From assembly GCA_964016885.1 (NCBI GenBank), contig OZ024756.1:27962001-28026000 (forward strand): a stretch of 64,000 nt of DNA, in the 5' to 3' direction. The first letter of the stretch is position 1. Every line of letters starts with the position of its first letter. The notes beneath the pieces were generated by a model. It saw nothing but the letters and a program-made list of their open reading frames with translations, ran no database searches and was not told the origin of the DNA. Origin of the DNA: Eledone cirrhosa. Its lineage: Eukaryota. A program made the translations under genes and the position numbers. This document shows positions 1 to 64,000 of the stretch, piece by piece.

Positions 1-10
1 GTTTATGTAT

Positions 11-78
<68 letters not shown>

Positions 79-257
79 GTGTATATGTATGAATATATAT
101 GTATATATATATATGTATATGTGTGTTTGCGTGTGTGTTTATATACCTTTATATTTATTATTCTTTTTCTCCTTTTCTTATTCTTCCTCCAGCTTCACTT
201 TCATATTTATTATATTTTTGTTTTGCAAATCCACTTTCAATAAACACACCATGATTT

Positions 258-317
258 TTTCATTCTCATGAATGACAGCATATTTGTTTGCTTTCAAGAA
301 ACCACTGGTAAATGAAA
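258..317 (+). ncRNA. Degenerate type I hammerhead ribozyme (family B), core mutated to CUCAUGA
   Basis: TTTCATT-CTCATGA-stem II-GAAA-CCACTGG-TA-AATGAAA. Homologous to the intact copy at 57667-57726 (-). The G5C change probably inactivates it. Confidence 0.6.
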
Positions 318-360
318 TAATTAGCTTATGTTGCTTATTACATAACTATATATATATATA

Positions 361-429
<69 letters not shown>

Positions 430-514
430 AATAAATTATACAATTATCAAAGTTGTGTTCAAATCATTTAATAGCTGACAATCGTTTCTTCCAAACTCTC
501 ATAACTATAAATAG

Positions 515-550
<36 letters not shown>

Positions 551-592
551 CGATATATTAACAAATGTAAACTATATTTATAAAACCATATT

Positions 593-657
593 TATTTCAT
601 TATACATATTTCAAGGACACCAAGTCAAATTATGGTGCGCTTTCATCAGACAAAATA
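593..657 (-). ncRNA. Type I hammerhead ribozyme (family A) in the 3' pLTR
   Basis: Reverse complement: UAUUUUGU-CUGAUGA-AAG.CG.CACCA[loop]UGGUG.UC.CUU-GAAA-UAUGUA-UA|AUGAAAUA. Stems I, II and a minimal stem III all close. Confidence 0.8.
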
Positions 658-1226
658 TAATATAGATCAGTTTTATAAATAAATATTGACATACCCTTAA
701 AAAATGTGACCATTTCTGTTGGAAGCTCCCGGATAGTGGGGTTACTAAATTTATTATGCAAATTAGTGTCGGATATGTTTAAATCACAGTAGATTTAAAA
801 TAGGCCGTTGGAGTATGGAAAAAGAAAAAAGGAAAAAAGGAAGAGAAAGAAAAAGAGAAAAAGAAAGAGCGAACTCTAAGAAGGAAAACAAAAGAAAGTG
901 AAAGAGAAAAAGACAAAAAAGACAGACAGAGAAAAATAAAGAGAAAGAGAAAGAGAAAGCTCTAAGTGATAGTTTGTTGTATTAACGTAAATTTTAAAAT
1001 GAAGCGAAAAAATAAATATTTATTGGACGAGTTAGGCAGAGTAAATAAGCGTGAATAGAAAATAAATAAATAATAATAACCGGAGAATTTTATCTAATGT
1101 TTAAATTCGACTAAATGTTTAGTTTATCAATTAAATTATCAATTAAATTATTGAGATCTTTACATTAAAAATTGAGATCTATATATTATTAAAAAGAATA
1201 TATTCATATATATATACACATACACA

Positions 1227-1260
<34 letters not shown>

Positions 1261-1994
1261 TATACAATAAAAGATTTTTTTTGATTTTTTTATGTTTATG
1301 ATATAGGAATTTTTCTAAACTTATGGAAATTCATAGATTTTTCGGAGAAAAATCGGAGAAAATTCGTTTCTATGTAATAGCAATACAGCATGAAGGAAAT
1401 TAAGTTATTTACTTATATTAAATGTTATAAAAAAGTTAAGATGATAAAAGAAAGTTAATATTATAAAAAACCTTATATTATTTTATAGTAAGTTATAATT
1501 TTATAAATTTTATATATCTCATAAATCCACCTGTTATATAGTTGTGACTGTTATAATATAAGTTTGTTTAAGAAACCTTATATAACAGAGTGTATTCGAA
1601 TTGTATATATACATACATAGAGATATAGACACATTCACCCATAATATATATATATACAGAGATAGACAAACCACATATATATACACACATACATTTATAT
1701 ATACATACATCATATATATATACATAGTTAAATATAAGGTACATAATATAAAATAAAATAAAAAATAAATAAAAATGAGTTATAATTTTAAAGGATTATA
1801 ATTTTAAGAGGAATTACAATTTGGAAATATATTCATATAATTTTAAGCAATATAACTTTAAAACAATATAATTTAAAAAAAATATTTTAAGATATAATTT
1901 TTAAAAATATATATAAAATTCAGTATAAAAATGAATTTTAATTTTTATATAATATTTAACTCTCAGTATGCTTACCTCAAATTTTTATAACCAT

Positions 1995-2105
1995 ACGAGA
2001 AATTTTCAAAAAAAGAGAAATTTTCAGAAAAATAGAAATTTTCAAAAAAATATGAGAAACTTTCAAAAAAATATGAGAAACTTTCAAAAAAATATTTTCC
2101 AAAAA
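1995..2105. repeat. 18-21 bp minisatellite (GAAATTTTCAAAAAAATATGA-like) in the PLE 3' region
   Basis: About 5-6 imperfect units, which produce the RNFQKNM pseudo-ORF. Confidence 0.7.
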
Positions 2106-2259
2106 TCTCTTTCATTCAAAAGCTTTCAGTATGTTTATCTTGAAAAATTTCAAGGAAAAAATTTTTAAGGAGAGTTTTAAGCAGTCAAATGAAGGAATCT
2201 AATGATTTATCGATGGGTTCAATAGATTTAATAGAATGAGTTATATATTACATTTTAAA

Positions 2260-4430
2260 TTTATATTTAAACGTTGAGTTCAATCTATGTCTGCAGCAAC
2301 TGAAAAGATTGTTTCTTACGTTCACGGAATTTTTGCTTTTTAATATAAAGAATATTTCCTCTATACAAAGATGACAATTTTCGGAAGAGGAGTTAAATGG
2401 AGGCGCTTTTGAAATAATATTCCAAAGTAAAGAATATTTAATGTTCTTTGATTTAAGGTCCCATAATAAACTAGATAGAGAAGTTGAAGATTTTTTGTTT
2501 AAATTCGTAAAAGAGCATTTATGGTTATTAAAACGAGATTTAAAGTCTGTGGAAGTAGATCCTACATAATTAAATGAATTTAAATTAGTTTTTACATTAC
2601 AATTATATACTATATATTTTAGCTAAACAATTGTTATTTAACGGACAGTTAGATTTATTTCTACAGTTACATTTATCGAAATTCAAGTTACTAGAAGCTG
2701 TATTATTGAATTGGATATTGCTGGGGTTGTTAGTGGTATTTTGGTTAGGTTTTAAGTTTCTATTATTAATTCTATTAATATTCTGCGCTAAATTATTGGT
2801 GGTTGAATAAGTTAATTTTATAGTATGTCTATTAAATATTGAGTAATATCTATGTGTTCTAGGGAAGCATTTGTCAAGAGCTTTAAAGAATAGTTTAGCA
2901 ATAGGAGTTTTAATATTTAATGAGAAAGGAGGAGCAAACCATAATATATTCCTAGTTCTATTTCTTTTTTTGTTTTCCGAATTATTGTAATGTTTTCTAT
3001 TATAGTTGTTAAAATTGTTAAGATTATGGTTAGTTGTTATATTATTATTCTTATCAATGTATTTAATTTTATTTCTATATCCAACTCTACCTAACGCTTC
3101 GTTTTAATAATGTGCTTTATCATCAAATATATTCCTATTAGCTGAAATTCTAGAAATGCGTTGTTGTACGGAATTCACTATAGTATTTTTAACGGATCTG
3201 GGGTGATTAGAGTTAAAACGTAGTTTAAGTTCTCGTTTAATTTGTGAAATGGATAATGAAGACATGTGTTAAGGTTTAAGGTTACATCTAGAAAATTAAC
3301 TATTTTATGGTTATTCTCTATTTCTACTTTTAGATTAAGGTAATTAAAAAATTGTATAATTTCTTTTCTTTTCTTATTTAATTCACAGTTATTATTTTCG
3401 ATAAGTAATAGCATATCGTCACGATACAAACCTCCGGCCATCTCCGGTATTTTTCTATGTAGAGAATTATTTATAAAAAGCCCCACAATATCCGTTACCT
3501 GAGCGGAATCGGTTGACCCCATAATGATATCGAAATTATTATTTCTATCTGCTCTAGTCCAAAGTTGGTTGTTAAATTCAATTAATGTTTTCCGTGCCGT
3601 TAAGTCTGTATGTTGAAATGCATATGTTAGTGCTTTATTAAGTAGATTAGGAGTGATGGATGAGTAATAATTAGCAATATCCAATTGAATAAACTTATTA
3701 TTATAGTTATATTAATTTCTTTAAACCATTCGATAACTTCATTAGTTCCTTTCCATAATTTTAAATAAGATAATTCCTTAATTTGTAGTATTATTCTGTT
3801 TAAAATATTCTTGCTAAGTATGCCAAGGTCCGATTTAGATGGTGCAATCAATTTCAAAGTTCCTTTTGTGGTCCTTCATATTAATTTTTGGTTTCCTTGG
3901 CATGAAGGGTTGTGTCCTATTTTCAATGTCTAATTCATGCATTATATAAGAGGCATCTGTATTCAATTTTTCAAGGTCGTCATTAGTTGTTATTTTGTAT
4001 TTCTTCCTTAATTCCTTTAATATAAGATCGTTATAGATGTCCTTTTGTATTCCGTAAAGATTATTGGTTTTATCTGACTTGACTAGAATTTTTTCCGTTT
4101 TCTCAAGTTTTCAATATTATTTTTGATATTTCTTAGGTAATCCGAGCCTATAAAGTTTTTTTTTTTTTTTCATTTAATGCTTTGGATGATAGATATGATT
4201 TCGTTTTCAAAATCCATTAGTAGTTTGTTGGAAGGTGGTTTTTTTTTAGATTTGAAGATTTTATCAAGATTGGAAACATTCTCTTTTACATCAGATTTAT
4301 CGAAGTGGAAAGCACGCCACCTGATTCTTCTTATAAAAGAGTCTGATTTTTCTATTAATTGTTTAATAAAGTCTTTATTCCTAGGTATAGGTATGTCTTT
4401 TAGAGAAGAAGAGATCTTAAAAAATTTCAT
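2260..4430 (-). pseudogene. Frameshifted Penelope pol ORF (RT + GIY-YIG endonuclease)
   Basis: ORF-track fragments 4170-4430, 3627-3857 and 3178-3684 in different frames, plus GIY-YIG motifs read by hand at 2280-2680. The 3' end is approximate. Confidence 0.85.
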
Positions 4431-4613
4431 TATTTTTCAGTTATAATATAAAGCGCTCGACAGAAAAGGAGCAGAATATATGTAGAAGTTATATTTAATT
4501 TGTTGGGATACAGCAAGCAAATATTTTTATAACTGATATAAAGCACTCAACAAATTATTGGAGTAAAAATACGATATATTAACAAATGGAAACTATATTT
4601 ATAAAACCATATT

Positions 4614-4678
4614 TATTTCATTATACATATTTCAAGGACACCAAGTCAAATTATGGTGCGCTTTCATCAGACAAAATA
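4614..4678 (-). ncRNA. Type I hammerhead ribozyme (family A) in the 5' pLTR
   Basis: Same sequence as 593-657, located ~190 nt upstream of the pol ATG. Confidence 0.8.
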
Positions 4679-4782
4679 TAATATAGATCAGTTTTATAAA
4701 TAAATATTGACATACCCTTAAAAAATGCGACCATTTCTGTTGGAAGCTCCCGGATAGTGGGGTTACTAAATTTATTGTCAAA

Positions 4783-5299
4783 CCACATCCAGGCAATGCG
4801 ACCCCACATTACTAACACAAGAGAAGTAACACCACAAGAACATGAGGATAGGGAAAAAGCCCTCAATGCCCATATAATGATGTGGACTAATATAATGCAG
4901 CCCAACAAAAGGACTGCCAACAACTTCCAGGCCTGGAACAATGACGTGCCAGCGTTGTATGGGCTTCGAAAAGACCATAAAACGAGCAGTGACCCAGTCA
5001 CAGGACCACCAACACGGCCAGTCTGTGGAGCTAACATTGCTAGTAACTACAGACTTTCCTACTTCCTCTCCCTGATCATACGCCCCATCATTGAAATGTC
5101 CCCAGATATATGTGACAGCACGGAGGACCTCCTCAGCAGAATCGGCGAGAGTAACCGATCTAGGGACCTAACAAACTACATAATAGGTAGTATGGATGTT
5201 GTGTCTCTGTATCCATCTATTGACGTGGATTTTGCTGTGGAGAAATGCGTAGAAATGATCAGTGAGAGCAATGTTGAATTCCATGGGATTGATACCTGA
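4783..5299 (+). mobile_element. RT fragment of a different Penelope-like lineage
   Basis: LYGLRKDHK...PTRPVCGA...IGSMDVVSLYPSID are PLE RT motifs. Higher GC than its neighbours, and it abuts the 5' pLTR of the Naiad-type element. Confidence 0.75.
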
Positions 5300-5389
5300 A
5301 GATACCTATAAATACCATATTTATTTTTTGATACCCAGATTCCTGATGATTTCTAAAGAATGAGACAGTTCTAGTCCTGTACAATCTCA

Positions 5390-5503
<114 letters not shown>

Positions 5504-5618
5504 TATATATATAACAAATGTAATCTGAGTTTTTCGAATGACATGGCTAATATGCAAATCAGGCCAATCAGCCATTATATATTTTAGAAAATATCATATA
5601 TTTTCACTAGCTCTGACA

Positions 5619-5700
5619 GTTGGCAGGTGAACAGTGAACCTCACTGATGAAGGGTAATACCCAGAAACATTAGTGTCTGCGGTTCTGTTTACATGCCAAC
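5619..5700 (+). ncRNA. Type I hammerhead ribozyme with long bulged stem I (family C)
   Basis: GUUGGCA.GUGAACAG.GAACC.CA pairs with UG.GGUUC.UGUUUAC.UGCCAAC. CUGAUGA at 5644-5650, stem II GGG-UAAUA-CCC, GAAA at 5664-5667, stem III ACA-UUAG-UGU, GUC site 5675-5677. Confidence 0.85.
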
Positions 5701-5858
5701 ACAAAAGCAAGAATGAGGGGCTCATTCTACTGACATGGCTTTTAAAAAGAGGCTACAGACGAATCGAATATTATTATTAATATTCGAAAAACTCAGATTA
5801 CATTTGTTGTATTCAGCCATGTAGAGCGATATTTTTTTTTTTTTTTGTTCTATTATTA

Positions 5859-6837
5859 CGTATATACATAAATGGCAATTTCTGTCTGTGTGTGTGTGTG
5901 TTTGTGTGTTTGTTTGTGAACCTAAAACTCAAAAACTACCAAACAGATCTTGATGAAACTTGACACGTGTGTGGGGGCTCATGCCCATTTGATTTCTTAC
6001 GTATATTTCATTTTAATCAAAGGGTTCCACAGGGGCTCAAACCCCGCTGAAAATATTTTCCCTTCGATTTATATGAAATTTAAACCATAGGTAGATGAAA
6101 AGAGATGATGCCTATTTACAAAATTTCAGCAAATTTCAATAATATTAAGACACCCTAATGGGGGTTAAATCCCCTATAGTGAACATTTTGGCTAATAAAT
6201 GGAACAAGATTTCACGAACTCCCCCTATGGTTTTGGAGATAGACCCCCATAACCATATATATTCTGAAACTACATTGCCCAGGCTACTTGGATAAGTATA
6301 TTTCATTTTAATCAAGAGGTTCCCCGGTGGCACAAATCCCCACAAAAAACCCCCGCTGAAAATGTTTTCCCTTCGATTTATATGAAATTTAAACCATAGG
6401 TAAATGACAAGATATGATGTCTATTCACAAAACCTCAGCAAATTTCAATAATATTAAGACACTCTAATGAGGGTTAAACCCCCTATTATGGTTCCCCGGG
6501 GAGACAAACCCCCGCTGAAATTTTTTGCCTTCGATTTATATGAAATTTAAACCATAGGTAAATGACAAGATATGATGCCTATTCACAAAAATTTTGAATC
6601 GATATTTTTTAAATAATTATTTACAAGAAACAAAATAAGAATACAATTTAATAATGTAATTTTGATTTGATATATTACAAAAAAATAATGTTTTCCAATT
6701 TTTCATGCATTACATTTTACATTGGGTAATATTGAAATGCAGAGTTTTTCACCATAAATTATATCACTGATGTAAAATCAATTTCTTACAAAAAAAAAAA
6801 TGTGTGAAACGCAGCAAGGCGCGGGTAATTCGGCTAG
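5859..6837 (+). mobile_element. Non-autonomous Helitron (Lep1-like) with internal subrepeats
   Basis: 5' (GTCT/GTTT)n tract followed by AACTACCAAACAGATCTTGATGAAACTTG. 3' GC-rich hairpin-like segment then CTAG|T at 6834-6838. Three internal copies of an ~85-bp unit at about 6040, 6350 and 6508. The 5' end is degenerate. Confidence 0.7.
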
Positions 6838-6853
6838 TTATATATATATATCT

Positions 6854-6900
<47 letters not shown>

Positions 6901-7531
6901 GTGACATATGGTAACCACTTTGGCTAAATTTTTTGGGAAATGGTAATTTCGCGCAGGATGAACTCTCACAATGGTGTCGATTCTCTGGACAGGAGTTGAG
7001 TCAAACAACAGCTACTTAATCTCTATGTAGCCATGTAGCCATTCAGATAATAATTATAACAGCATATATCTATCTATCTATCTATCTATCTGTCTATCTA
7101 TCTATCTATCTATCTATGTGTCTGTCTATTTAGTGGAATACAATAGTATATATATTTTCTGGAATATACAAATACTTCACGGACTGAATATATACACTGT
7201 TTCCCCATTAATAACAACTAGATTGAAGGAACGTATCTTATAATTTTCTGTGAATAACGTTTAAATATATTTTGGAATACTTGTCTTAACCTATTACATA
7301 ATACATCCAATCAAAAATCTTATCCTTACTCAGAACACGCCCATATCTGTAGATAAATCAATCTTATTGGTTTATCAATTTACCAGTAGATCATAATATT
7401 GGGTCGTATTCAACTGTATATATTTAAAAGTTTTCGCACACTAAGTCATTTCTAAGTCTCCAGTTTACGTTACATAGTCCTATCGTTACTTTGTTACCAA
7501 ACCTCACATATTATCGACAACCACTACAACA

Positions 7532-7675
7532 ATGGATTTTCTACAATTGTCTAGAAATATTTCACAACGTTTTACTATTTCCTCTCTCATAGCTTTCGGA
7601 ATATTTCTCGTTCTCGCCATAACAATTTTCCATCAAGATTCAAGAATAAGAAAAATGGAGCAGAAAACCGAGGAG
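7532..7675 (+). CDS. Orphan first coding exon (signal anchor) of the short-chain-collagen-C4-like gene family
   Basis: [48 protein letters not shown]|gtatgt. Near identical to exon 1 at 30790, 40842 and 52404, with upstream flank 7155-7740 also homologous. No exons 2-4 are seen before the gap. Confidence 0.65.
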
Positions 7676-7780
7676 GTATGTATATAAATTTTTGTAAACG
7701 TGTGTCTTCTTTCTATTGCTTTATACACTTGGTGTTTCGTATTTATACACACACGCACGCGCGCACACGCACGCCCACAC

Positions 7781-7822
<42 letters not shown>

Positions 7823-7824
7823 TG

Positions 7825-8225
7825 AGAAAGGGATAGATATGTTTCTTTATTAGCCACAGGGGCACACAAGAAGGGGACAAATACAAAGGGGGACGTTTAC
7901 ATACAATAAAAACGTGTAAAATACTATCACAAATGCAATTTAAAAATTAATCGATTTTCCCCAATAGGGGGAGACATTTCATATGGGTAACACATACCCC
8001 CGAAAAAAATGTGCAACCCTCATCTCCAGGAGTACGAAGAGTTTGTACCCCTTTCCTCTCTTCCTCTTTTTCCTCAACCTACAGGCTGATATAGAGAGAA
8101 GGCCCATTCACTCGGGCCATTCTCGCCACTTTCACCCACCTTTCATAAAACTTGCTGGGGTACAGCACCTCTCTCTCCATCCTGATTCTTCTTCCAAAGT
8201 GGTATTTGAAAAAAAGAATCAGAAA
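7825..8225 (-). mobile_element. 3' end fragment of an L1/Tx1-like LINE
   Basis: Minus-strand peptide FFKYHFGRRIRMEREVLYPSKFYERWVKV resembles a Tx1/L1 ORF2 C-terminus. It is followed by a 3' UTR with AATAAA near 7840. Confidence 0.45.
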
Positions 8226-8356
8226 GGGATAGATAGATGGATAAATGTAAACATACATAGAAAAGTATGTAAAGATATATTGACTGTGCATATATGTATT
8301 TTGTGGGCATATAAGTATTTAATGTGCTATAATCCGCTTACTCATTTTAAAGAACA

Positions 8357-9728
8357 CTAGCAGAATGGCCCAGCGTTGCTCGGGATTTGCTCTAGGGTTC
8401 TTATATATTTGATATGTATTTATCCTTATCGAGCCTCGTGAAATAAATACGCTTGTTTATATTTTATTATTGTGTATGCAAAAATATCTGTACACGAATA
8501 TATAATTATATATATATAACAGTACAGAGAAGTACGGAATCCCTCGGCCTCGGGATGGTCTCTACATTTTGTGCTTATAAAAGAATTCGTCGTAGATTAC
8601 CAAGGTTTTTTTCAGTGCGAAGAAAATCAATACTTTATCACGAAATAAATACTTTTGTTTATATTTTGTTATTGTGTATGCAAAAAATATCTGTACACGA
8701 ATATATAATTATATATATATATATTAAAATAACAGATTATAGCTTAAACAAAGAATCGCTGCTTTCACCCTTTACGGGATCTTCTGAAACTAAAAAAATC
8801 AATCTGTGAACGCAGAAGTAAATATTTCGAAAAACGTTACACACTATATATATATATACACACTATATATACATACACACACACACACAGACACACCCCG
8901 TCATAATGACGTAATGCAGACAGCCAGGCATACAGACAGACATTATAAGGGCGCTACGTTATATCTATGTATCTATCTAAAAAGAGAAAGACTAAGAATT
9001 ATAGAGAGAGATCGCTAAATCGCCTAATGCGGTCGCTAGGGCATTGAAAATTTTAAATTGTTTTTGCTCAAAACACTGATGGGACCATAAGTATTACATG
9101 TGTAAAGTTTGAAAAAACTCGGTTGGGTGGTTCTCGAATTTTAGTGATTGGACAGACAGACAGACAAACAGACATTCTCTGGTTTAGTAATATAAATATT
9201 TCAAAGGTACCAGTATTTTGGCACGCTTTCGTCAGATGAAATACAATATTTGGTTGAAAGATAATGACATATCCGCATATAAACTTAATGTTATGAGTTC
9301 ACTGCGGATAGTGAATAAATATTCAAAACTCAGGATAAATATGCTAATGAGGATAACGTAAAAACGGAAAAGGATCGTTAAGTTTAGACGCTAGATATAT
9401 TTTAAATAATTATCTAAATTGTTTTTAAAAAAGAGGTTTGCTATTAAAATTAAGGAAAATTTATTTAAAGTTACTTTCGGAATATTTATAGAAATATGCT
9501 TATATACATCCAAACATATTTACATGGGTATAGAAAGAATGAAATAATTATATTTATTTTTATTTATTTAATTTTATAATGTGGAAGTATTTATAATATT
9601 AAGGTGAGAGCTCAAAACACTCACGGGACCATAAGTATTGCATGTGTAAAGTTTGAAAACAATCGGTTGGGTGGTTCTCGAGTTTTAGTGATCGGACAGA
9701 CAGACATTCTCTGTTTTAGATATATAGA
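8357..9728 (-). mobile_element. Composite non-autonomous Helitron with two 5' ends and captured Penelope pLTR DNA
   Basis: A|TC start at 9728; hairpin CCCGAGCAACGCTGGG plus CTAG|T at 8357. 9610-9728 is a 5' end module, 9197-9612 matches PLE sequence 15007-15422, and 8357-9196 matches Helitron 15423-17197. Confidence 0.8.
8741..8791 (-). ncRNA. Variant hammerhead fold (family D, CAGAAGA core) inside the Helitron
   Basis: Reverse complement: AGUUU-CAGAAGA-U.CCC-GUAAA-GGG.U-GAAA-GCA-9nt loop-UGU-UU|AAGCU. Homologues at 15874-15924 (+) and ~24739-24788, 34773-34823, 46372-46422 (-). Confidence 0.6.
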
Positions 9729-9936
9729 TTATGGTTTGCCTGAAAGCGAGTAGCATTTCTTTCCAGAGACTATGTTGAAAAATAAACCCTATTTGATCAT
9801 TCCACGAGAGTATCTTGGTTAGCCTATCTATGACATTTTCAGTTCATGAACTTTTCAGCTGACTCTTGTACCTTAAAATCTGGTTTAACAAAAAAATTAA
9901 GTCTCATATTAATTTGTCCATTATATATATTCCTAG

Positions 9937-10095
9937 ACGGCGAATTGGCAGAGTCGTTAGAAAAACAGATAGAATGCTTTATGGTATTCGTTCCAGCTGT
10001 CTGCTTTCTCAGTTCAAATCCCGCCGAGGTCAACTTTGCCTTTCATCCTTTCGAGGTCGATAAAAAAAGTACCAGTTTAGTATTAGGGTCGATTC
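9937..10095 (+). mobile_element. tRNA-derived SINE with Deu/Nin-like core
   Basis: A box TGGCAGAGTCG, B box GTTCAAATCC, core CTTTGCCTTTCATCCTTTCGAGGTCGATAAA...GTACCAG. Confidence 0.8.
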
Positions 10096-10288
10096 TTCCT
10101 CTATATTTCTTTCTCATTTCCTCTCTCTCACTTTCTGTCTTTCTCTGGAAGAAATCTGCTGTACTCGGGCCTGGAGAGGGATGGGCTCCCCCAGGCTTAA
10201 AATGCCCAGGAAACGCCGTATGTCACTACGGCGTTCCTACGACTGAATCAGGAGTTACGGGACCATACCACATATACACAGTAATAAT

Positions 10289-10473
10289 TGTTTCTACGTT
10301 AGGCACAAGGCCAGCAATTACCCAGTGCATTACTGGTACTTTATTTTATCGACCCCGTAAGGATGAAAGGCAAAGTTAACCTTGGCGGGATTTGAACTCA
10401 GAATGGCAAGGGCCGTAACTCTATACGTCAAAGCATGGCGTCCGACCCTCTACCAATACTGCCAACCCACCGC
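10289..10473 (-). mobile_element. Full-length tRNA-derived SINE with 18-bp target site duplication
   Basis: TSD CATATACACAGTAATAAT at 10271-10288 and 10474-10491. A and B boxes and the Nin-like core are on the minus strand. Confidence 0.9.
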
Positions 10474-10760
10474 CATATACACAGTAATAATATAAGGTGA
10501 TTTTATTCCTTGTTAGGAATGATCATATCTAAAGTCTGTTTTGTACCCAACATGTACACATATGGATTTTTTTCTGGCATTGTCAATGTATTTATTTTAA
10601 CGATCGGAATATCTCTTTTCTTTAGAGCCGTAACTCCAGGTGAAGTCGTCGGGGAGTGCTGTAGCGATATAAGGTGTTTCTTGGACAAATCAAGTATACT
10701 GTCTACCTTCGTTGTAAGCTTTTGGTATAACGATCGAACAAGGTAAATAGATATATATAA

Positions 10761-10869
10761 AATGAGTTACATGCTTTGTTAATGAATATTCAACAGAGTT
10801 AAGTTTATGAAGCACTCTGTTATAAACTTAACTCTGTTGAATATTCATCAACAAAGCATATAACTCATT

Positions 10870-10870
<1 letters not shown>
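10761..10870. repeat. ~50-bp-arm foldback of a PLE pLTR end
   Basis: AATGAGTTACATGCTTTGTT...AAGTTTATGA inverted against TTATAAACTT...CATATAACTCATT. The arm recurs at 11509-11560. Confidence 0.75.
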
Positions 10871-10959
<89 letters not shown>

Positions 10960-10964
<5 letters not shown>

Positions 10965-11236
10965 GAAGTTCTATTTAAATTGTTGGGATACAACAGGCAA
11001 ATATTTTTATAACTGATATAAAGCACTCAACAAATTTTTGGAGTAAAAATACGATATATTAACAAATGGAAACTATATTTATAAAACCATATTTATTTCA
11101 TTATACATATTTCAAGCACACCAAGTTAAATTATGGTGTGCTTTCATCAGATAAAATATAATATAGAGCAGTTTTATAAATAAATATTGACATACCCTTA
11201 AAGAATGCGACCATTTCTGTTGGAATTCCCGGATAG
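10960..11236 (-). mobile_element. Solo Penelope pLTR within (TA)n
   Basis: Near-identical to 4480-4756 and flanked by TA tracts on both sides. Confidence 0.85.
11094..11158 (-). ncRNA. Type I hammerhead ribozyme (family A), best-paired copy
   Basis: Perfect 10-bp stem II AAGCACACCA/UGGUGUGCUU, stem I UAUUUUAU/AUGAAAUA, CUGAUGA and GAAA intact. Confidence 0.85.
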
Positions 11237-11240
11237 CTTC

Positions 11241-11282
<42 letters not shown>

Positions 11283-11358
11283 CGAAGGAAATATGGTAAG
11301 GAACCAGGTGGACCATAACGCACCAAAGTATTCAATACTTGGGGTAGTAGAGTGGGTA

Positions 11359-11469
11359 ATAGGAACCACTAAGACCTCGACGGCTGAGCTCAAGCCGTTT
11401 CGACGGCTAATTCTGGGCGGAATTAGCCGTCGAAACGGCTTGAGCTCAGCCGTCGGGGTCTTACTGGTT

Positions 11470-11474
<5 letters not shown>
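11359..11474. repeat. GC-rich near-perfect palindrome (~55-bp arms, short loop)
   Basis: ATAGGAACC...CGACGGCTAATTC-TGGGCG-GAATTAGCCGTCG...GGTTCCTAT. Confidence 0.9.
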
Positions 11475-11508
<34 letters not shown>

Positions 11509-11664
11509 AATGAGTTATATGCTTTGTTGATGAATATTCAATAGTGTTAAGTTTATAACAGATATGAAGCATTCTACAGTAAATTTTATCTGGAGTATTA
11601 TGATATTAATAAATGGTAAATATCTTTATAACAACATATGTCAATATCTTAACACCAAATATTG

Positions 11665-11724
11665 TATTTTATCTGAAGAAATCATACTATAATTTAGTAT
11701 CCTTGAAATATGTATAATAAAATA
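11665..11724 (+). ncRNA. Type I hammerhead ribozyme (family A variant)
   Basis: UAUUUUAU-CUGAAGA-AA..AUACUA[UAAUU]UAGUAU..UU-GAAA-UAUGUAUA|AUAAAAUA. Confidence 0.7.
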
Positions 11725-12061
11725 AATATGTTGTTATAAAGATATTTTCCATTTATTAATATTATTAATATATATATACATTATATATATATATATATAT
11801 ATATACATATATATAACAAAAATAAAAAATGCTGATGTTACATAAATCGTTTAATTATTATAATTATTTCAACGGTTTTCCCATGCAATCAAGAAGTCTT
11901 TCATGCATTTGTTGGTGTTATAAGAACGGTATCTTCAGATGAAATCCGATCTAGTAATATGCTTCCGTCAGGAAAAAACACACGTCCTTCTGCTCGTGTG
12001 CCCAGCAGACATATGAGTTCCTGAAAGGGACTCCCAGCCTTTTATATATATATATATACGT

Positions 12062-12151
<90 letters not shown>

Positions 12152-12153
12152 CC

Positions 12154-12285
<132 letters not shown>

Positions 12286-12329
12286 ATCAATAATATAAAT
12301 AAATGGAAATATCTTTATAAAACCATATT

Positions 12330-12390
12330 TATTTTATTATATATATTTCAAGGGTACCAGTATTTTGGTACGCTTTCGTCAGATAAAATA
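12330..12390 (-). ncRNA. Type I hammerhead ribozyme (family A variant) in an inverted pLTR
   Basis: Reverse complement: UAUUUUAU-CUGACGA-AAG.CG.UACCA[AAAUAC]UGGUA.CC.CUU-GAAA-UAUAUAUA|AUAAAAUA. Confidence 0.8.
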
Positions 12391-12410
12391 CAAAATTTGG
12401 TTAAAAGATG

Positions 12411-12513
12411 ATTGTTTCTACCTTTGGCACAAGGCCAGCAATTACCCAGTACATTACTGGTACTTTATTTTATCGATCCCGTAAGGATAAAAGGCAAAGT
12501 GAACCTCAGCGGG
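12411..12513 (-). mobile_element. 5'-truncated SINE
   Basis: Nin-like core and tail inserted into the pLTR. Confidence 0.8.
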
Positions 12514-12789
12514 ATGACATCCATATATGAACTTAATGTTATGAGTTCACTGCGGATAGGGAATCTGTTACCTGAGCTGAATCAGACGAATCCATTGTGA
12601 TACGAAATTGTTCTCTCTATCAGCCCTAGTCCAGAGATTATTGTTACATTCAATAAAAGTTTTACGTGCAGTTAAAATAATGTTTATTTCTTCGCTAGAT
12701 AAGTCAGTGTGTTTCGATGCGTAAACTAGTGTTTTATTAAGTAGATTAGGAGTTATTGAAAAACACACTGACTTATCTATAAGAAATAA

Positions 12790-12896
12790 ACCCCGCCGAG
12801 GTTGACTTTGCCTTTCATCCTTACGGGGTCGATAAAATAAAGTACCAGTAATGCACTGGGTAATTGCTGGCCTTGTGCCTAAAGTAGAAACAATTA
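12790..12896 (+). mobile_element. 5'-truncated SINE
   Basis: CCCCGCCGAGGTTGACTTTGCCTTTCATCC...GTAGAAACAATTATT, inserted in the PLE RT region. Confidence 0.85.
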
Positions 12897-15422
12897 TTTT
12901 AACTGCACTATTGTCTGATTCAGCTCAAGTAACAGATTTGGTTGGAATATTCATTCTTAATGCATTACATAGGAAACTGCCGGAGATTGCCAGAGGTTTA
13001 TATCGCGATGATGAGTTGTTTATAGTTGATAAACATAACAATAGTGAATTTAGCAGAAAAAAGAAAATTATCATAGAATTTTTTAATAATTATAACGTTA
13101 AATTAGAAATAGAAAATGATAATAAAATTGTTAATTATTTAGACGCTACATTAAACCTTAACTCAGGCCTGTATTACCCCTTCCATAAGATTAATGAAAA
13201 CCTAAACTACGTCAGCTTCTACTCTAACCACCCTAGAAATGTTTAAAAAAAGCTATAGTCAATAGTGTCCAACAAAGAATATCTAGAATTTCAGCTAATA
13301 AAAATATATTTGATAACAAAGCGGAATATTACAACGACGCTCTACACAGAGCCGGATACAATAATAAAATTAATTACATAGATAAGAATAGCATACACCA
13401 ACATCCTAAAATTTACTATAATACTAATAATAAACAAATTAACCAAAATAATAAATCAAACAAAAAATCTAGAACTAGAAATATAATTTGGTATTCTCCT
13501 CCAATTTCTTTAGGAATTAAGACACCTTTAGAACACCAATTTTTTAAGGCTTTAGATAAATGTTTTCCTAAATCCCATAAATATCACTCTATTTTTAACA
13601 GACATACAATCAAACTCTCTTACTTTACTACTATGAATATAACACAAAATATTAATAGAATTAATAATAGGAATTTAAAATTAAACCCAACCAAATAAAC
13701 CCTAATAGCAATAACAATATTACTAATAACATTACATATGATAATAATAATAACCATACCGTTTCTCTAAACAACAACTCTAGAAAATGTAATTGCAGAA
13801 ATAAAATATCATGGCCTTTACAAATAATTGCCTAGATACAAATTTAGTATACAAATGCACCATAAAGACTAGAGATAGATTATATAATTATATAGGAGCT
13901 ACTTCTACAAAATTTAAGGACCGCTGGTATAATCATAAACATACGTTCAAACGATCGGACAAAAAATTCTCAACCTCACTATCACAATTAATTTGGTCTT
14001 TAAAAGACAATAGTACTAACTATTCGATCTCTTGGCGAAGGATATCGAAAGCGCCTGTTTACCAAAATATGGCTCTCTCAAGAATTTGTCATCTCTGTAT
14101 TGAAGAAATCTTTCATATAATTACCAATCCTAGTAATATCATAAACAAAATAGGAGATATTTAATTCTTGTTTGCATCGATTTTCCAGAACATTTAAAAA
14201 TATTTACAATTTATAGAAAATACTGTACATGGCCTGTATAAGTTTTAATGTTTTTAAAGGTGTTTTTAAAGGTTCTGAAAGGATTTTCTAAAAGTTTTTA
14301 TAAGTTTTTTTTTAATTTATACATACAAATACTTAATATTATCTCATTTATACATAGATATACTTATTGTTATCAAAATCTATACATAGAAAGTTTTATG
14401 TTTTTATTAATATCTTTAACATATTTACTATATGGTGTTCCGAAATCATATATAATTTTTACTTATATTGTAATTATAATATAAATTGTAATTAATTATT
14501 AGGTTAAACATTAGATCAAACTATATATCTTTAAAGAGTTTAAATTAATAAACATTAGAGTTATCTTTTCCTTTGATAAAACCTTGTTTACATTTCACCT
14601 ATACGAGACATTCAAACTTTACATAAATGTTTAAATGTTTAAATTTATATTTCTAACCTTATACAATAATAGATTATACATAATATTATACATCTTCTCT
14701 ATAAAAATATAATTATTTTCACATTCCTAAGCTATATATAGAAAATGCATAAATATCTTCGCTCGGCATATCCTAACTGTTTTCATAAGTAAACAAAATC
14801 TATATTCACGCGTAACTATTTATGTACTAAATAAATGTTTTAATAACGTTATACAATTAATCTCTTATACTAGAATACACTATATTCATAACTGCACTCA
14901 TCATAATATTGAAACATACCCGTAAAATACATCCAATAGTATATATAGATATAGAGAATCTTTCACATATTAAATTAATAGTTCTCATTTTAATACATTA
15001 ATTTATAGCTCTCACCTTAATATTATAAATACTTCCACATTATAAAATTAAATAAATAAAAATAAATATAATTATTTCATTCTTTCTATACCCATGTAAA
15101 TATGTTTGGATGTATATAAGCATATTTCTATAAATATTCCGAAAGTAACTTTAAATAAATTTTCCTTAATTTTAATAGCAAACCTCTTTTTTAAAAACAA
15201 TTTAGATAATTATTTAAAATATATCTAGCGTCTAAACTTAACGATCCTTTTCCGTTTTTACGTTATCCTCATTAGCATATTTATCCTGAGTTTTGAATAT
15301 TTATTCACTATCCGCAGTGAACTCATAACATTAAGTTTATATGCGGATATGTCATTATCTTTCAACCAAATATTGTATTTCATCTGACGAAAGCGTGCCA
15401 AAATACTGGTACCTTTGCAATA

Positions 15423-15766
15423 TTTATATTACTAAACCAGAGAATGTCTGTTTGTCTGTCTGTCTGTCCAATCACTAAAATTCGAGAACCACCCAACCGA
15501 GTTTTTTCAAACTTTACACATGTAATACTTATGGTCCCATCAGTGTTTTGAGCAAAAACAATTTAAAATTTTCAATGCCCTAGCGACCGCATTAGGCGAT
15601 TTAGCGATCCCTCTCTATAATTCTTAGTCTTTCTCTTTTTAGATAGATACATAGATATAACGTAGCGCCCTTATAATTGTTTCTACTTTTGGTATAAGGC
15701 CAGCAATTATCCCAGTACAATATATGTCTGTATGCCTGGCTGTCTGCATTGCCTCATTATGACGCG

Positions 15767-15801
<35 letters not shown>

Positions 15802-15937
15802 GTGTGTGTGTATATATATAGTGTGTAAAATTTTTCGAAATATTTTCTTCTGCGTTCACAGATCTATTATTTTAGTTTCAGAAGATCCCGTTAAGGGTTA
15901 AAGCAGCGATTCTTTGCTTAAACTTTAATCTGTTATT

Positions 15938-15986
<49 letters not shown>

Positions 15987-16707
15987 GTGGAACACTGGAA
16001 GGTAATATCCGTTCCGTAATGGTAGAGCACTCAGTCCAAGGGACGAGTTGGGTAGAAGTGGTTACACAACAGTTAGTTCACCATACCGAGAACAATTCTT
16101 TCATCTTCGCGTATCTTCAGCTCGGAATGGGCATGGTTATAGGAACAGGAAGGACAACCGTACGAACGCGCATGCGCAGAAACCCGGTCTCTTCACACAG
16201 GCAATACTAGACTGCTTTCGAGAGGTGTAAGGGAGATAACTGCGAAAGTCCGAAAAGTTTTTAGGTTGAAAATAAAATTACAAAGAATCAGTTCGGAGGC
16301 TTGTAGTTATGCAATAGGTTTTTGGCGACGTGTGGACAACGTGTGAAAAATTCACTTCTCGTGTTTAGGCAATCACTATTGCGTAATCTGTTTAGAATAG
16401 TTATTCGTTCGTCAATACATAAGCCACGCGTCGGATTTCCCCTTGCGTATGGCTTGGACTTAGTGATGACTTTCCATTGAATAGAGTAGTCTATACTTGA
16501 GTCCTTGAGGCACCATACGTGGCTCGCGAGTTTCGTGGGTGAACGTCTGTCCGGGTATCTGAAGGTAGACTGGTGGTTCAGGAAACGTTCCTTGAATCGG
16601 ACCTCCGCCATGCCCACATTGGATTTGACCTCCTGTGGTTCGTTTGGTCGGTTGGAAGTGACCACAGCTTCATAGATTACAGCTGGTGTGTTGCATTGCT
16701 GTTAAAG

Positions 16708-16806
<99 letters not shown>

Positions 16807-17197
16807 GTGTACAGATATTTTTACATCAACAATTTCACGAGGCTGGACAAGGATAAATATATATCATTTTTGCATACACAATAACAAAATATAAACAAAA
16901 GTATTTATTTCGCGATAAAGTATTGATTTTCTTCGCACGGAAAAAAACCCTGGTAATCTAAGACGAATTTTTTTTATAAGCACAAAATGTAGAGACCATC
17001 CCGAGGCCGAGGGAGTCCGTACTTCTCTGAAATGTTATATATATATAATTATATATTCGTGTACAGATATTTTTGCATACACAATAACAAAATATAAACA
17101 AAGGTATTTATTTCACGAGGCTCGATAAAGATAAATATATATCAAATATATAAGAACCCTAGAGCAAATCCCGAGCAACGTCGGGCCATTCTGCTAG
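15423..17197 (+). mobile_element. Non-autonomous Helitron inserted into the PLE hammerhead, carrying later insertions
   Basis: A|TT 5' end with (GTCT)n, hairpin CCCGA-GCAACG-TCGGG and CTAG|T at 17194-17198. Contains a SINE tail (~15675-15722) and a PLE fragment (15983-16710). Confidence 0.8.
15983..16710 (-). mobile_element. 3' fragment of a third Naiad-type PLE (GIY-YIG + pLTR) inserted in (TA)n
   Basis: [19 protein letters not shown]...TKLASHVW...LNTRSEFFTRCPH. Degenerate hammerhead at 16086-16125 (family E). Confidence 0.85.
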
Positions 17198-17374
17198 TAT
17201 ATAATAAAATAAATATGGTTTTATAAAGATATTTCCATTTATAAATATTATTGATATTATACTCCAGAAGAAACACTGTTGAGTGCTTCTAATCTGTTAT
17301 AAATTAACTTTGTTGAACAACCAATAAAAGAAATAGTTACATATATATATATATATACACGTATATATATACAA

Positions 17375-18765
17375 CTACAACAACAACAACACCAACAGCA
17401 GCAGCACCAACACCAACAACAGCAACACCATCACCAACAACAACACAACCACTACCAACAACAACAACACCAACAACAGAAACAACACAACACCAACACC
17501 ACCACCACCATCACCACCAACAATAACAACAACAACATCACCAACACCAACACCAACAACAGCAATACCACCACCAACAACAACACCAACGACAGCAACA
17601 TCACCACCATCAACAACAAAAACAACACCACCACCAACAACAACAACACCAACACTAACAACAGCAAACCACCACCACGAACACCAACACCAACAACAAC
17701 AACAACAACACCAACACAAACAACAACAGCAACAACAGCAACAGCACCACCAACAACACCACCAACAACACCACCAACAACAACACCACCACCAACACCA
17801 CTACCAACACCACCACTACCACCACCAACAACAACACCAACAACAGCAACAACAACAACACCACCACCAACACCACTACCAACACCACCACTACCACCAC
17901 CAACAACAACACCAACAACAGCAACAACAACAACACCAACACCAACAACACCACCAACACCAACAACAACAACACCAACAACACCAACAGCAGCACCACC
18001 AACAACAACAACAACCCCAACAACAACAGCAGCACCACCAACAACAACAACAACAACACCAACACCACCAACACCAACAACAACAACAATACCAACAACA
18101 ACAACAGCAGCACCACCAACAACAACAACAACATCAACACCAACAACAACAACAACAACAACAAGACCAAGAACAACACCAACAACAACACCAACAACAA
18201 CACCACCACCACCAACAACAACAACAACAGCAACAGCAACACCAACACCAACAACAGAAACACCACCACCACCACCACCAATACCAATAACAACAACACC
18301 AACAACAACACCACCACCACCACTAGCAACAACAACAACAACAACAACAGCAACACCAATACCAACACCAACAACAGCAACACCACCACCAATACCAATA
18401 ACAACAACACCAACAACAACACCACCACCACCACCAACAACAACAACACCAACAACAACACCACCACCACCAACAACAACAATACCAACACCAACACCAC
18501 CAACAACAACAACAACACCAACAACAACACCACCACCAACAACAACAACAACACCAACACCAACAACAACAACAACAACACCAACACCACCACCAATACC
18601 AACAACAACAACAACAACACCAACAACAACACTACCACCACCACCAACACCAACAACAACAACACCAACACCAACACCACCAGCAACAACAACAACAACA
18701 ACACCAACACCAACAACAACACTAGCAGCAACAACAACAGCAGCACCAACACCAACAACAACAAA
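17375..18765. repeat. 1.4-kb mosaic trinucleotide array (CAA/CAC/CAG)
   Basis: Continuous CAN-period repeat, which explains the poly-L/V ORFs. Confidence 0.95.
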
Positions 18766-18904
18766 ATGTTAAATCTGCATGTTTCTAGTTTATGCAAACG
18801 TCACAAAATCTAAACTATAATAAAAGAACGTCTGCAGTCCTGCGTACAGTTTTTTGGTTTTTTTTTTATCCCGTTATTAAAATAAGTTGGATTACTTTGA
18901 ATAA

Positions 18905-19016
18905 ATAATTATTTCTCTTTTGGCACAAGGCCGATAATTATCCCAGTGCATTACTGGTACTTTATTTTATCGACCTCGTAAGGATGAAAGGCAAAGTTAA
19001 CCACGGCGGGATTTGA
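18905..19016 (-). mobile_element. Truncated SINE
   Basis: Nin-like core and B box on the minus strand. Confidence 0.8.
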
Positions 19017-19374
19017 ATGAATATTACATAATTTATCTACTAAATTTCGTAAACAAAAATAATTTCGTAAAAATAAATAATTTAAAATTGACTTCTTTTC
19101 AAAGTTACACTTCCGGTATATCGTTGCCACCACCACCACTACTACAACTACCATATATATAGAAAGAGGGAGTGTGTGATGTCAACACTTCCGGTGGCGA
19201 TCACTTGAATAAACATACTAATTTTCTCCTAATGCAGTTTATATATAATATCGTCATTTTTAAATGTATCATGGATTACGTTACTGATTACAAAAGACAG
19301 TGTAACAACGTCTTCGTTCAATTTCTTTTTGTATTGGCAATTACGATTTTATTTGATGTATTATATCTACATGT

Positions 19375-19630
19375 CAGCTCAAAAGTGACACAGAGGAGAC
19401 TGAGGTTAGCTGGACATGCTCACCGACATCCAGAGTTGACATTGCACTCAGTGCTCCGGTGCCCCTACATGGACACACTGGAAGAGGAAGACTAAAGTTA
19501 ACGTATGTTGATGCCCTAAGGACAGACACTAGTCTGTTGGAGACGCAGGACATGGCAGCGATATTGAGGGACAGAGACCGCTGGAGAGAACTCGTCCATG
19601 GATCTCGGGAATTTTACCCGCACAAGAAAA
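19375..19630 (+). mobile_element. 3' end of an RTE-clade LINE, frameshifted
   Basis: KVTQRRLRLAGHAHRH...GRGRLKLTYVDALRTDT...RDRDRWRELV. Partly duplicated at 22027-22210. Confidence 0.7.
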
Positions 19631-19811
19631 GAGAAAAATATCTACATGTATATATACTTGCGTATAATATCAATATACACACTACAAACGTTAGCAGAAA
19701 ACCACCCAAAGGGTGGTTTTTATGCTAGTTCTTCTAATAAATATGAAAATATAGGTCGATTTATATCTAGTTTCATTATATCTAATTTCCATTTGTCAGC
19801 ATTTTCATACA

Positions 19812-19954
<143 letters not shown>

Positions 19955-20374
19955 CTGTATATATATATATATATATACATCCACACACTTATATTAACAT
20001 ACTTCTGCTCATAGCTTCGTACTTACATGCACACACACTCATTTACTCGCATATACACACACATTTCTTCTTAGCTTCGTACGGACGTATCATAACCCCC
20101 CCCCACACACACACACACGTACACACACACACACACACAAACACATGCTTACGCACGTGCTCAAGTATAGCTCTTTTTACAAAACGGTTTTTTTCCATTT
20201 CAGATAGACGCGCTCCATCATCCACTTTTCTAAAAAAATAAATCATACACAAAACGCCAGCACCAACAGTTTTGCAAGAGATGTCAACACGAATGGACCT
20301 GTTATTTTTACCTAAAGACATTTTATCCAATTCCAACCCGCCCGTCCCCTCAATCTATCTTATTTCTCATTCTT

Positions 20375-23208: not shown

Positions 23209-23408
23209 NNNNNNNNNNNNNNNNNNNNNNNNNNNNNNNNNNNNNNNNNNNNNNNNNNNNNNNNNNNNNNNNNNNNNNNNNNNNNNNNNNNNNNNNNNNN
23301 NNNNNNNNNNNNNNNNNNNNNNNNNNNNNNNNNNNNNNNNNNNNNNNNNNNNNNNNNNNNNNNNNNNNNNNNNNNNNNNNNNNNNNNNNNNNNNNNNNNN
23401 NNNNNNNN
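23209..23408. other. Assembly gap (200 N)
   Basis: Run of N. Confidence 1.
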
Positions 23409-23961
23409 CACTATCAATTAATGCCAGCATTGTGTTCTAGTATGTGTGATGGAGAAGGTGGAGGTTACTAAGTACTAACAGGAATAATGCCGTCTTTAGA
23501 AACACCAGTCATTAATTAAAAATAAAGGATTCTCTACCACATATGTTGTAGTCTATTAAACTGTGCTATTGGACATTGGTCCAAAACCAACCTAGCGTGA
23601 CGGTAGATAGTTAAAAGGTAAAAATATCATAAACAGGAACAGACCTATGTAAATTATATAATATAAGATAAAAGGAATAAATAACAAGAATAAAATAATA
23701 AGAGGTATAAATAATATACAAACATATAAAAAATATAAAGTTCATAAGGTTGCGAGAATAATGAGAATTATATGATTAAAAAACCTTTAAAGTTAATAAA
23801 GCTTACAAAAATTTAAAACATTATCTCCTGAATTAGCCATAAATAAATTAATAAAGTAAATTAGGAAGAATATAACAAAGGCGGTAATATTTAATTCTGA
23901 TGGCCAAGATTCACTAAAGTTCATTATTAGATAATAAAGGGTTGGCAATGCTATTTCATGA

Positions 23962-24011
<50 letters not shown>

Positions 24012-24631
24012 GTGTTTGCATTGGGAATGAAATTGTTGTAATGCTTTTATCGTCCGACGTAGCAGTCTATCTTATCCCTGCAAAGAGGAAAGACAATAAG
24101 TTATTGGTGACCGAGTATGTTCAGAAAATAGAAAGAGGGTTAAGTTGAAAAGTTAATCAATAGCAAGTACTCAAGGTATAGAACCAAAATTTGTTTGAAC
24201 GGTGTGTTAATCAGAAGACAACCCTGGATCGGTCTATGGATTAACGCACTTCCCTAATGGTCACGATACCAATGATATGAATATATATTTTTTCATTTTT
24301 CTTTTTTTTTCTCTTCACTTCTTAAACCTTGTTTGTAAATAACATTCTTTCTGCACCTTCTGTTTAACATGTGCGACACCACACTAATACATTTCACTAC
24401 ATTTGATAATGCATATAAATGCTGAACCGGTAATAGGCAATAATTAAATATATAAATAGATAAATAAATGCCATTGTTAAATAATAAATAAATCAACTAA
24501 TACCTTAACACTTCACACAAATTCAAACATTTCGTTTTAATCATTTCTAACCCAGAAAAAAGAGAGAGAGAAACAAAAAAAGAAAAAATATCTTTTTCTT
24601 CCTCATAATCGGTCTCTTTTCTCACCCTGTT

Positions 24632-24690
<59 letters not shown>

Positions 24691-25177
24691 ATATATATAA
24701 ATTTATATATATATATATTTATTAAAATAACAGATTAAAGTTTAAGCAAAGAATCGCATGCTTTCCCCTTAACGGGATCTCTGAAACTAACCATCAGCGA
24801 CTCTTTGCTTAAAGTTTAATCTGTATTTTAATAAATATTTGCTCTACGGTTCTTATATATGTTATATATATTTATCCTTATCGAGCCCTCTTTGGATTTT
24901 AGTCTTCAAATTTATTATATTACTATATATATATATATATTATATATATATATATATAATATATATATATATTATATATAAAGGTAAAACACTGGAGGTA
25001 ATATACGTTGTGTTAGAGGCATGGGATGCGTCTGGTAGAAGTAGTAACACAACAGTTAGTTCACCATACTGAGAACAATTGTTTCACTTATGTGGTTCTT
25101 CAGCTCGGAGTGGAGACCAGTCCGAGCTGGAAATCCGCATAAGGTGAAACAACTGTATATATATCAATATATATATT

Positions 25178-34578: not shown

Positions 34579-34734
<156 letters not shown>

Positions 34735-34956
34735 TTATATATATATATATATTTATTAAAATAACAGATTAAAGTTTATGCAAAGAATCGCTGCTTTCCC
34801 CCTTAACGGGATCTTCTGAAACTAACCATCAGCGACTCTTTGCTTAAAGTTTAATCTGTATTTTAATAAATATTTGCTCTACGGTTCTTATATATGTTAT
34901 ATATATTTATCCTTATCGAGCCCTCTTTGGATTTTAGTCTTCAAATTTATTATTAT

Positions 34957-35008
<52 letters not shown>

Positions 35009-46289: not shown

Positions 46290-46333
<44 letters not shown>

Positions 46334-46555
46334 TTATATATATATATATATTTATTAAAATAACAGATTAAAGTTTAAGCAAAGAATCGCTGCTCTCCCC
46401 CTTAACGGGATCTTCTGAAACTAACCATCAGCGACTCTTTGCTTAAAGTTTAATCTGTATTTTAATAAATATTTGCTCTACGGTTCTTATATATGTTATA
46501 TATATTTATCCTTATCGAGCCCTCTTTGGATTTTAGTCTTCAAATTTATTATTAT

Positions 46556-46611
<56 letters not shown>

Positions 46612-61285: not shown

Positions 61286-61548
61286 TTTATATATATTTTT
61301 TATTTATTAAAATAACAGATTAAAGTTTAAGCAAAGAATCGCTCTACGGTTCTTATATATTTGATATATATTTATCCTTATCGAGCCCTCTTTGGATTTT
61401 AGTCTTCAAAGTTATTATTATTACTATATATATATATATATATATATACATACATATAAATACATACACACACATGTATGTGTGTAAAACTCATTCTTAG
61501 ATGTATTCATTGAACCATATTTAACTCTTAAATAATATACCCACACAC

Positions 61549-61696: not shown

Positions 61697-61830
<134 letters not shown>

Positions 61831-63910: not shown

Positions 63911-64000
63911 ATTTAGGAGCAGTTTAGGTATGATACATTTTATTACTAATTATATCTAAATGTTTCTTCTCTCTTCATAATGTATTTTTAACTCTGATAC

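Follow-up and report, generated by a model that had tools for sequence, protein, structure and literature searches.

How does a Helitron come to carry two 5′ ends, the inner of them joined to host DNA that also lies upstream of a second Helitron nearby? The question is raised by an element at 8357–9728 in the 64-kb stretch of DNA analyzed here (the window), where it occupies the minus strand with the layout A/TC...CTAG/T (slashes mark the borders of the element): read on that strand, its TC start at 9728 follows an A and its CTAG end at 8357–8360 precedes a T. This element, Helitron A, is a non-coding, non-autonomous Helitron-type copy with no open reading frame longer than 120 aa inside. Its counterpart, Helitron B, lies on the opposite strand (Table 1), and the preliminary description of the locus saw in B a copy dead at its 5′ end that had been remobilized, together with its upstream flank, to give A. 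The window is AT-rich and rich in microsatellites, with an abundant retroposon tail (for example at 10283–10381) whose resemblance would suggest octopus, and a separate high-copy repeat at 9756–9830 starts 27 bp outside A's 5′ end. For a gene nearby, Atlas gave eukaryotic clusters in which Chordata or Mollusca are most frequent, a weak indication.

Table 1. Features of Helitrons A and B and of the putative donor locus. Positions are those of the window; pieces called copies are so named under the repair reading favored in the text.
Feature	Position	Strand	Remarks
5′ module of Helitron A, with GACA microsatellite	9610..9728 (119 bp)	-	TC start; A/T target
3-bp microhomology, GCT on + / AGC on -	9610..9612	.	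common to the module end and 15007-15009
Putative copy of the PLE 3′-region flank, 416 bp	9197..9612	-	1 difference from 15007-15422
Putative copy of B's 5′ end, 252 bp	8945..9196	-	1 difference from 15423-15674
A's own 3′ body	8357..8944	-	CA/TA microsatellite; 80-bp internal duplication; GC-rich palindrome; CTAG end, then T; 38/589 differences from B
Broken RT/GIY-YIG-like frames of the likely PLE whose 3′ region is the source of the flank	12836..14164	+	70% DNA match to 2540-3510
Likely donor tract, 416 bp of PLE flank and first 252 bp of B	15007..15674	+	2/668 differences from 9612-8945
Helitron B, A/TT...CTAG/T, without target duplication	15423..17197	+	sits in the palindromic TA of a hammerhead-like motif
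Retroposon-tail insertion, 44 bp, B only	15675..15718	.	marks the right end of the copied tract
Nested insertion, 839 bp, B only	15956..16794	-	second PLE-like fragment, between TA repeats
Extra partial duplication, 48 bp, B only	16819..16866	+	from the alignment with A

The termini were compared with the features that define HLE1 (PMC11417382). A has the 5′ TC, which is lacking both in B and in the internal 5′ end within A, each of which starts with TT. The 3′ CTRR is present as CTAG in A and B, following a short predicted hairpin in both, the last 40 nt having folds of −5.5 (A) and −6.5 (B) kcal/mol in predictions made without a shuffle control. Insertion between A and T without target duplication is evident for B from the continuity of its flanks, and A is flanked by A and T. 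Both termini belong to a dispersed family, since word depth in public reads, which is to be taken as an order of magnitude only and not as a copy number, exceeds 100,000 at 8372 and 9640 and is 8–29 in the left flank. To call B's TT end 'defective', and B 'dead', is an unproven reading, and in the Helitron literature consulted we found no test of TT versus TC 5′ ends.

Most of what had been described in the 5′ portion of A was borne out. The TC module is 119 bp long and is joined to the next piece through an overlap of three bases; the 416 bp that follow depart from 15007–15422 at a single base (9201/15418); and both loci share the TT 5′ end and its junction with the flank, the internal end at 9196 corresponding to B's start at 15423. 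A's own 5′ module is duplicated over 9066–9196, so that there are two 5′ modules 544 bp apart (9066–9162 and 9610–9706 are 92.8% identical). We infer that the outer one is A's own original 5′ end. Against B's 5′ end it shows 11 differences in 119 positions and a 12-bp microsatellite gap; its letters at 9622 and 9624 are those of the family, whereas at the corresponding sites (9078 and 9080) the letters of B and the tract are private. The overlap taken alone is only mildly beyond chance, an overlap of 3 bp or more arising in 2.4% (0.024) of random position pairs; the 22-mer across the junction occurs once within the window and in 0 of 100 shuffles.

The direction of transfer can be read from the flanks of the two elements. 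B's left flank matches 12412–12344 and its right flank continues with 12343–12284 of the same uninterrupted copy; since the two flanks continue each other, B inserted there between A and T without duplication or loss, and the junction of flank and Helitron arose at B. A's 416-bp piece, by contrast, is cut, and ends in the 5′ half of a hammerhead-like motif (identified by motif scan and BLAST of the flank). With B's flanks continuous, as in the PLE-end copies, B's locus is the likely donor of A's tract, and on this point the preliminary description was right. It had given the donor two extra insertions, where alignment reveals three (44, 839 and 48 bp), and A's 3′ part lacks all of them. The 44-bp insertion carries two C-to-T changes relative to all nine other hits in the window (the nearest matching at 35/37), so that it likely predates the copying and is older than the tract, although its source may already have carried both changes. 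An open reading frame at 16288–16701 in the 839-bp insertion is, by eye, like other GIY-YIG-like frames, and has no Pfam match.

Judged from weak sequence hits, the flank itself is likely a Penelope-like element (PLE). The hammerhead-like repeat end at B's flank lies downstream of broken RT/GIY-YIG-like frames, of which none of three (12836–14161) matches Pfam; in Atlas their match, at 0.95, is a cluster in which 11% of the members carry GIY-YIG. At the similar element at 2540–3510, an adjoining frame (2251–2622) matches GIY-YIG with E=0.0007, below the curated cut-off. PLE terminal repeats contain a hammerhead motif with a small palindromic helix III (PMC4209133), and a hammerhead-like pattern (core CUGANGA, helix II, GAAA, palindromic TA stretch) is present in five places. 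Helix II of this pattern folds, but with z=−1.7, and no hammerhead was detected by Rfam over 1–20000; the 63 sub-threshold Rfam matches in that interval, mostly of microRNA models on microsatellites, were dismissed as chance. Helitron B splits one of these motifs in its palindromic TA stretch (15382–15422 / 17198–17260), and related copies adjoin TA repeats, also at 11152, 11671 and 12384. An inverted RT-like piece and two retroposon-tail fragments lie ahead of the PLE frames (12400–12900), and near-perfect hairpin-forming inverted repeats are located between or beside TA repeats at 11381–11452 and 10772–10858. Helitrons and Penelope-like elements are both listed among the repeats of O. vulgaris (PMC13282606).

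The argument turns on how the differences between A and B are distributed. The two form an inverted repeat of 1,257 aligned columns with arms about 5.4 kb apart, in keeping with the length of about 1.2 kb previously given, and alignment of A with B's locus yields the donor match that had been proposed; the likeness is not uniform, however, but a mosaic of 0.3% and 6.5% divergence. The tract 9612–8945 differs from B's locus at 2 of 668 positions (0.30%, 95% interval 0.04–1.08; identity 99.7%), whereas A's 3′ part (8944–8356) differs from B at 38 of 589 (6.45%, 4.6–8.8; identity 93.5%), or at 28 of 461 without microsatellites, a 20-fold higher divergence. The best change point in identity is at 8942, was reached by only 2 of 20,000 permutations, and coincides with B's 44-bp insertion. 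When Helitron sequence alone is counted, the contrast is 1/246 in the tract versus 28/461 in the 3′ part (Fisher p=8e-5). A's TC module and A's 3′ part are similarly distant from B (p=0.22–0.33), and the module is more distant than the tract (p=4e-8). A does not reproduce the whole of B, only 9612–8945 being close to B's locus, and the whole B-like Helitron said to follow the flank gives way to a 3′ part of different standing. This contrast separates the capture from transposition in time. Remobilization of the whole copy in one event is not supported, because it predicts even identity between A and B through B's 3′ end.

Public data from an organism D were placed on 8100–9935 at 88% likeness, using four of nine runs (X4–X6, contigs of one sample, and X7, RAD reads) and leaving runs X1–X3 (share 0.09–0.11) out of the comparison. 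One X4 contig has 0 differences from the flank 9798–9935, which makes organism D the same species or a close one; it may be another individual or species relative to the window. The Helitron family is very abundant, the Helitron bins in X4 having word depths mostly of 36,000–1,100,000 (one microsatellite bin has 1,816). The PLE-part bins (9402–9587) have depths of 140–623, and the composite has therefore not been amplified or spread; the depth of the TT-type end bin, 338–569, is far below the 211,000–255,000 in the TC module, which makes the TC-type end the family norm. An insert-free family form is present: X4, X5 and X6, all from one sample, have contigs that join 9057–9065 to 9610/9611, and X7 joins 9053 to 9610 (87 reads, one start).

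Among the 40 of 178 difference rows shown for these reads, 12 of the 14 in A's 3′ part are letters private to A (examples of private letters are those at 8416, 8452, 8614 and 8773), at which the family sides with B, which gives A's 3′ part a history of its own. In the Helitron part of the tract, the rows shown have A agreeing with B against the family at 9035, 9054, 9078, 9080 and 9081, and at two of these five A's outer module bears the family letter. The letters that A and B have in common at 8541 and 8560 are absent from 99.7–99.8% of the X4 depth, which marks the two elements as unusually close relatives. Among the listed public pieces, the longest of which is 143 bp, none spans A's junction and none is an insert-free allele with A-private letters. 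The window letters at 9256, 9281 and 9460 are in no X4–X6 contig, and such holes in read coverage prove nothing. Exact-pattern scans of metagenome contigs for family motifs gave 0 loci.

These observations probably reflect a repair-mediated duplication, by gap filling, rather than the remobilization of a dead copy. It appears rather likely that A was already resident, and that a 668-bp tract was copied into it from its inverted sister B and the flank upstream of B while a double-strand break was being repaired. A resident A of about 828 bp, bounded by TC and CTAG, would have broken near element position 120, and the end on its 3′ side would have invaded B through homology, with pairing that reached B's 44-bp insertion and heteroduplex mismatches corrected to B's letters. 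Synthesis would then have gone back across the TT end of B and on into the PLE flank for 416 bp, and the released new strand would have annealed at AGC to the other broken end. The net gain to A would be 544 bp, comprising a second 5′ module and host flank within intact outer termini; no transposase step would be required, and a single repair event would account for both ends of the tract. Mosaic identity, donor polarity, microhomology, intact outer termini and lack of amplification are features of the locus as it stands, and the break position and the repair pathway are reconstructed around them. Break repair is further supported by the end of the tract, which falls at a heterology of apparently greater age than the tract itself, and the marks of repair duplication (a single nearby donor, microhomology, neither polyA nor target duplication) are all found within the window. 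Of the earlier proposal that a new 5′ end was gained by template switch or gap repair, then, the microhomology repair join fits the data and the remobilization does not.

Against the repair reading stand the rare letters common to A and B, which also fit an older local derivation, as well as the junction and the insert-free allele with A-private letters that were not found among the public pieces, and a tract and distance just beyond the proximal class of PMC2671141. The rare letters are the basis of an unlikely two-step history, in which an old local copy of B and its flank was joined to a TC module, and much later conversion between the inverted arms made the block uniform between the junction and B's 44-bp insertion. 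The shared letters at 8541 and 8560 lie within a 43-bp identical run, both ends of the tract are homology boundaries and natural stops for conversion, and the lack in A's 3′ part of any of the three B-only insertions would also suit this history. It requires two events, however, and the 411 bp beside the junction are without any old mismatch; moreover, the TC module is not significantly farther from B than the 3′ part is, and the shared letters could reflect a minor subfamily or a short earlier conversion. Far less probable is remobilization in the strict sense, in which rolling-circle transposition set out from the TC end of another copy, changed template to B's flank, continued as far as B's CTAG and led to insertion 5 kb off, and the same holds for a variant starting from a nested source with two 5′ ends (as in the models of PMC3288121 and PMC5148889). 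The intact TC, CTAG and A/T target agree with it, as does the combination of two 5′ termini with one 3′ terminus, known from maize and Fusarium (PMC3288121, PMC5148889). Against this, divergence from B is 20-fold higher in A's 3′ part than in the tract, homology between A and B ends at 15007, A's 5′ module has no match upstream of B other than A itself, the composite shows no amplification, and local hopping is not seen in the Helraiser data (PMC4778049). Strict remobilization is already contradicted unless a later conversion is added to it.

A replication template switch of the FoSTeS/MMBIR type, between the inverted arms of one fork with A resident, entering by homology and leaving by the 3-bp microhomology, would give the same product as break repair and would be suited by the inverted orientation and short distance (discussed in PMC8277862). 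It would leave to chance the landing just left of B's 44-bp insertion, an end that heterology-limited heteroduplex would explain directly, and we regard it as no more probable than strict remobilization. Least probable of all is an assembly or polishing artefact that misplaced B's sequence into A; the very high identity, a junction without an independent read across it, and the N gap and indel-rich sequence at 23209–25150 would be in line with such an error. Yet the tract contains two base differences, of which one is a change on B's side, from GAAA to GCAA in the hammerhead-like core; the register is clean at 8945/8944, and three bases of overlap are too few for an assembler to join.

The repair reading places A near several known systems. 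In human repair-mediated duplications the donor lies within 5 kb in 824 of 1,136 cases (PMC2671141), and A resembles these SDSA products (Pace et al. 2009, PMC2671141) in the insertion inside a resident transposon, the nearby donor on the same chromosome, the microhomology at the breakpoint, and the absence of a polyA tail and of target duplication. Unlike them, it uses long homology to a sister transposon at one end, with part of the acceptor converted; its host is an invertebrate, and its tract (668 bp, at a distance of 5.4 kb) is slightly longer and farther than the proximal class in that study (at most 619 bp, <5 kb). The twist relative to known repair duplications is thus the homology at one end, the microhomology at the other, and the capture of an upstream flank. 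Gap filling in animal DNA transposons is cis-biased and guided by microhomology (PMC8277862), and single-copy Pack-TIRs (Tan et al. 2021, PMC8277862) share with A the single copy, the cis donor and capture after insertion; their microhomology is also short (median 2 bp, against 3 bp in A), but A is a Helitron, and what it captured is a transposon 5′ end and PLE flank, not a gene. The filler-DNA model of Helitron capture (Hel1, PMC6544945) likewise has sequence gained internally when a break is repaired, the junction sharing short homology with the source; in contrast to the cases described there, A's donor is adjacent, the capture is dated by the 20-fold identity contrast, and the composite was not later amplified. 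How Helitrons acquire internal sequence is still called unclear (PMC6544945).

The reconstructed bat Helitron, Helraiser, requires its left end and transduces downstream flanks (PMC4778049). Its 701 events, from one bat element in human cells, are reported without clustering near donors (PMC4778049), which speaks against a jump that ends 5 kb from where it began. End bypass in that system and Helitrons with nested termini (PMC3288121, PMC5148889) resemble A in having host flank inside the ends and two 5′ termini with one 3′ terminus, an arrangement ascribed elsewhere to nesting (PMC3288121, PMC5148889). However, A's flank lies upstream of the donor's 5′ end, beyond the reach of Helraiser read-through (PMC4778049), and B's locus shows no nested outer TC end of the kind described for multi-terminus Helitrons (PMC3288121, PMC5148889).

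End bypass accounts for downstream flanks only, and at A's locus an upstream flank was gained, with donor and acceptor still side by side. Within a partial coverage of the literature, a search of titles and the openings of abstracts found no paper in which a Helitron captures, by homology-primed copying, the flank upstream of a sibling. We suggest only tentatively, as a possibility that may well prove wrong, that homology-primed one-ended repair between neighboring sister Helitrons is a general, transposase-free means of capturing a sibling's upstream flank. If so, a second 5′ end nested inside intact termini would be raw material for later Helitron-borne capture, and A's locus would be a dated snapshot of the flank-capture step in high-copy Helitron families. 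This is one locus in non-coding repeat DNA, and the kind of repair invoked is already well described; the locus suggests a genome-wide screen for Helitrons with two 5′ modules and a spacer matching a sibling's flank within about 10 kb.

Other repeats are found in the right part of the window. A tandem array at 23409–56200 has units of roughly 10–11.6 kb with 93–98% identity, and a 199-aa frame is intact in three copies (33408, 43628 and 54930) that differ in their amino acids; the one copy tested has no Pfam match, and Atlas gives unnamed clusters and C4/ApeC leads. At 23209–25150, a gap of 200 N precedes an array copy that, compared with the other copies, has single-base deletions, which suggests lower base quality there. 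A young tandem repeat at 61822–64000 (591-bp unit, >99% identical) flips its orientation at about 62830, with inverted arms of 730–861 bp at 100%; the flip is either a template-switch inversion or an assembly fold-back. Four short BLAST matches (24687–24887, 34719–35006, 46318–46606 and 61287–61387) belong to a TA-flanked short element in which two Helitron modules of the A and B type are reordered. They were rejected as donors or full copies, having only two modules in common with A and B and these in another order, and were used only by eye, to polarize a few letters. This short element has an internal inverted repeat, and its great abundance is suggested by loose ends at 8385 and 8435, present in each of the four runs.
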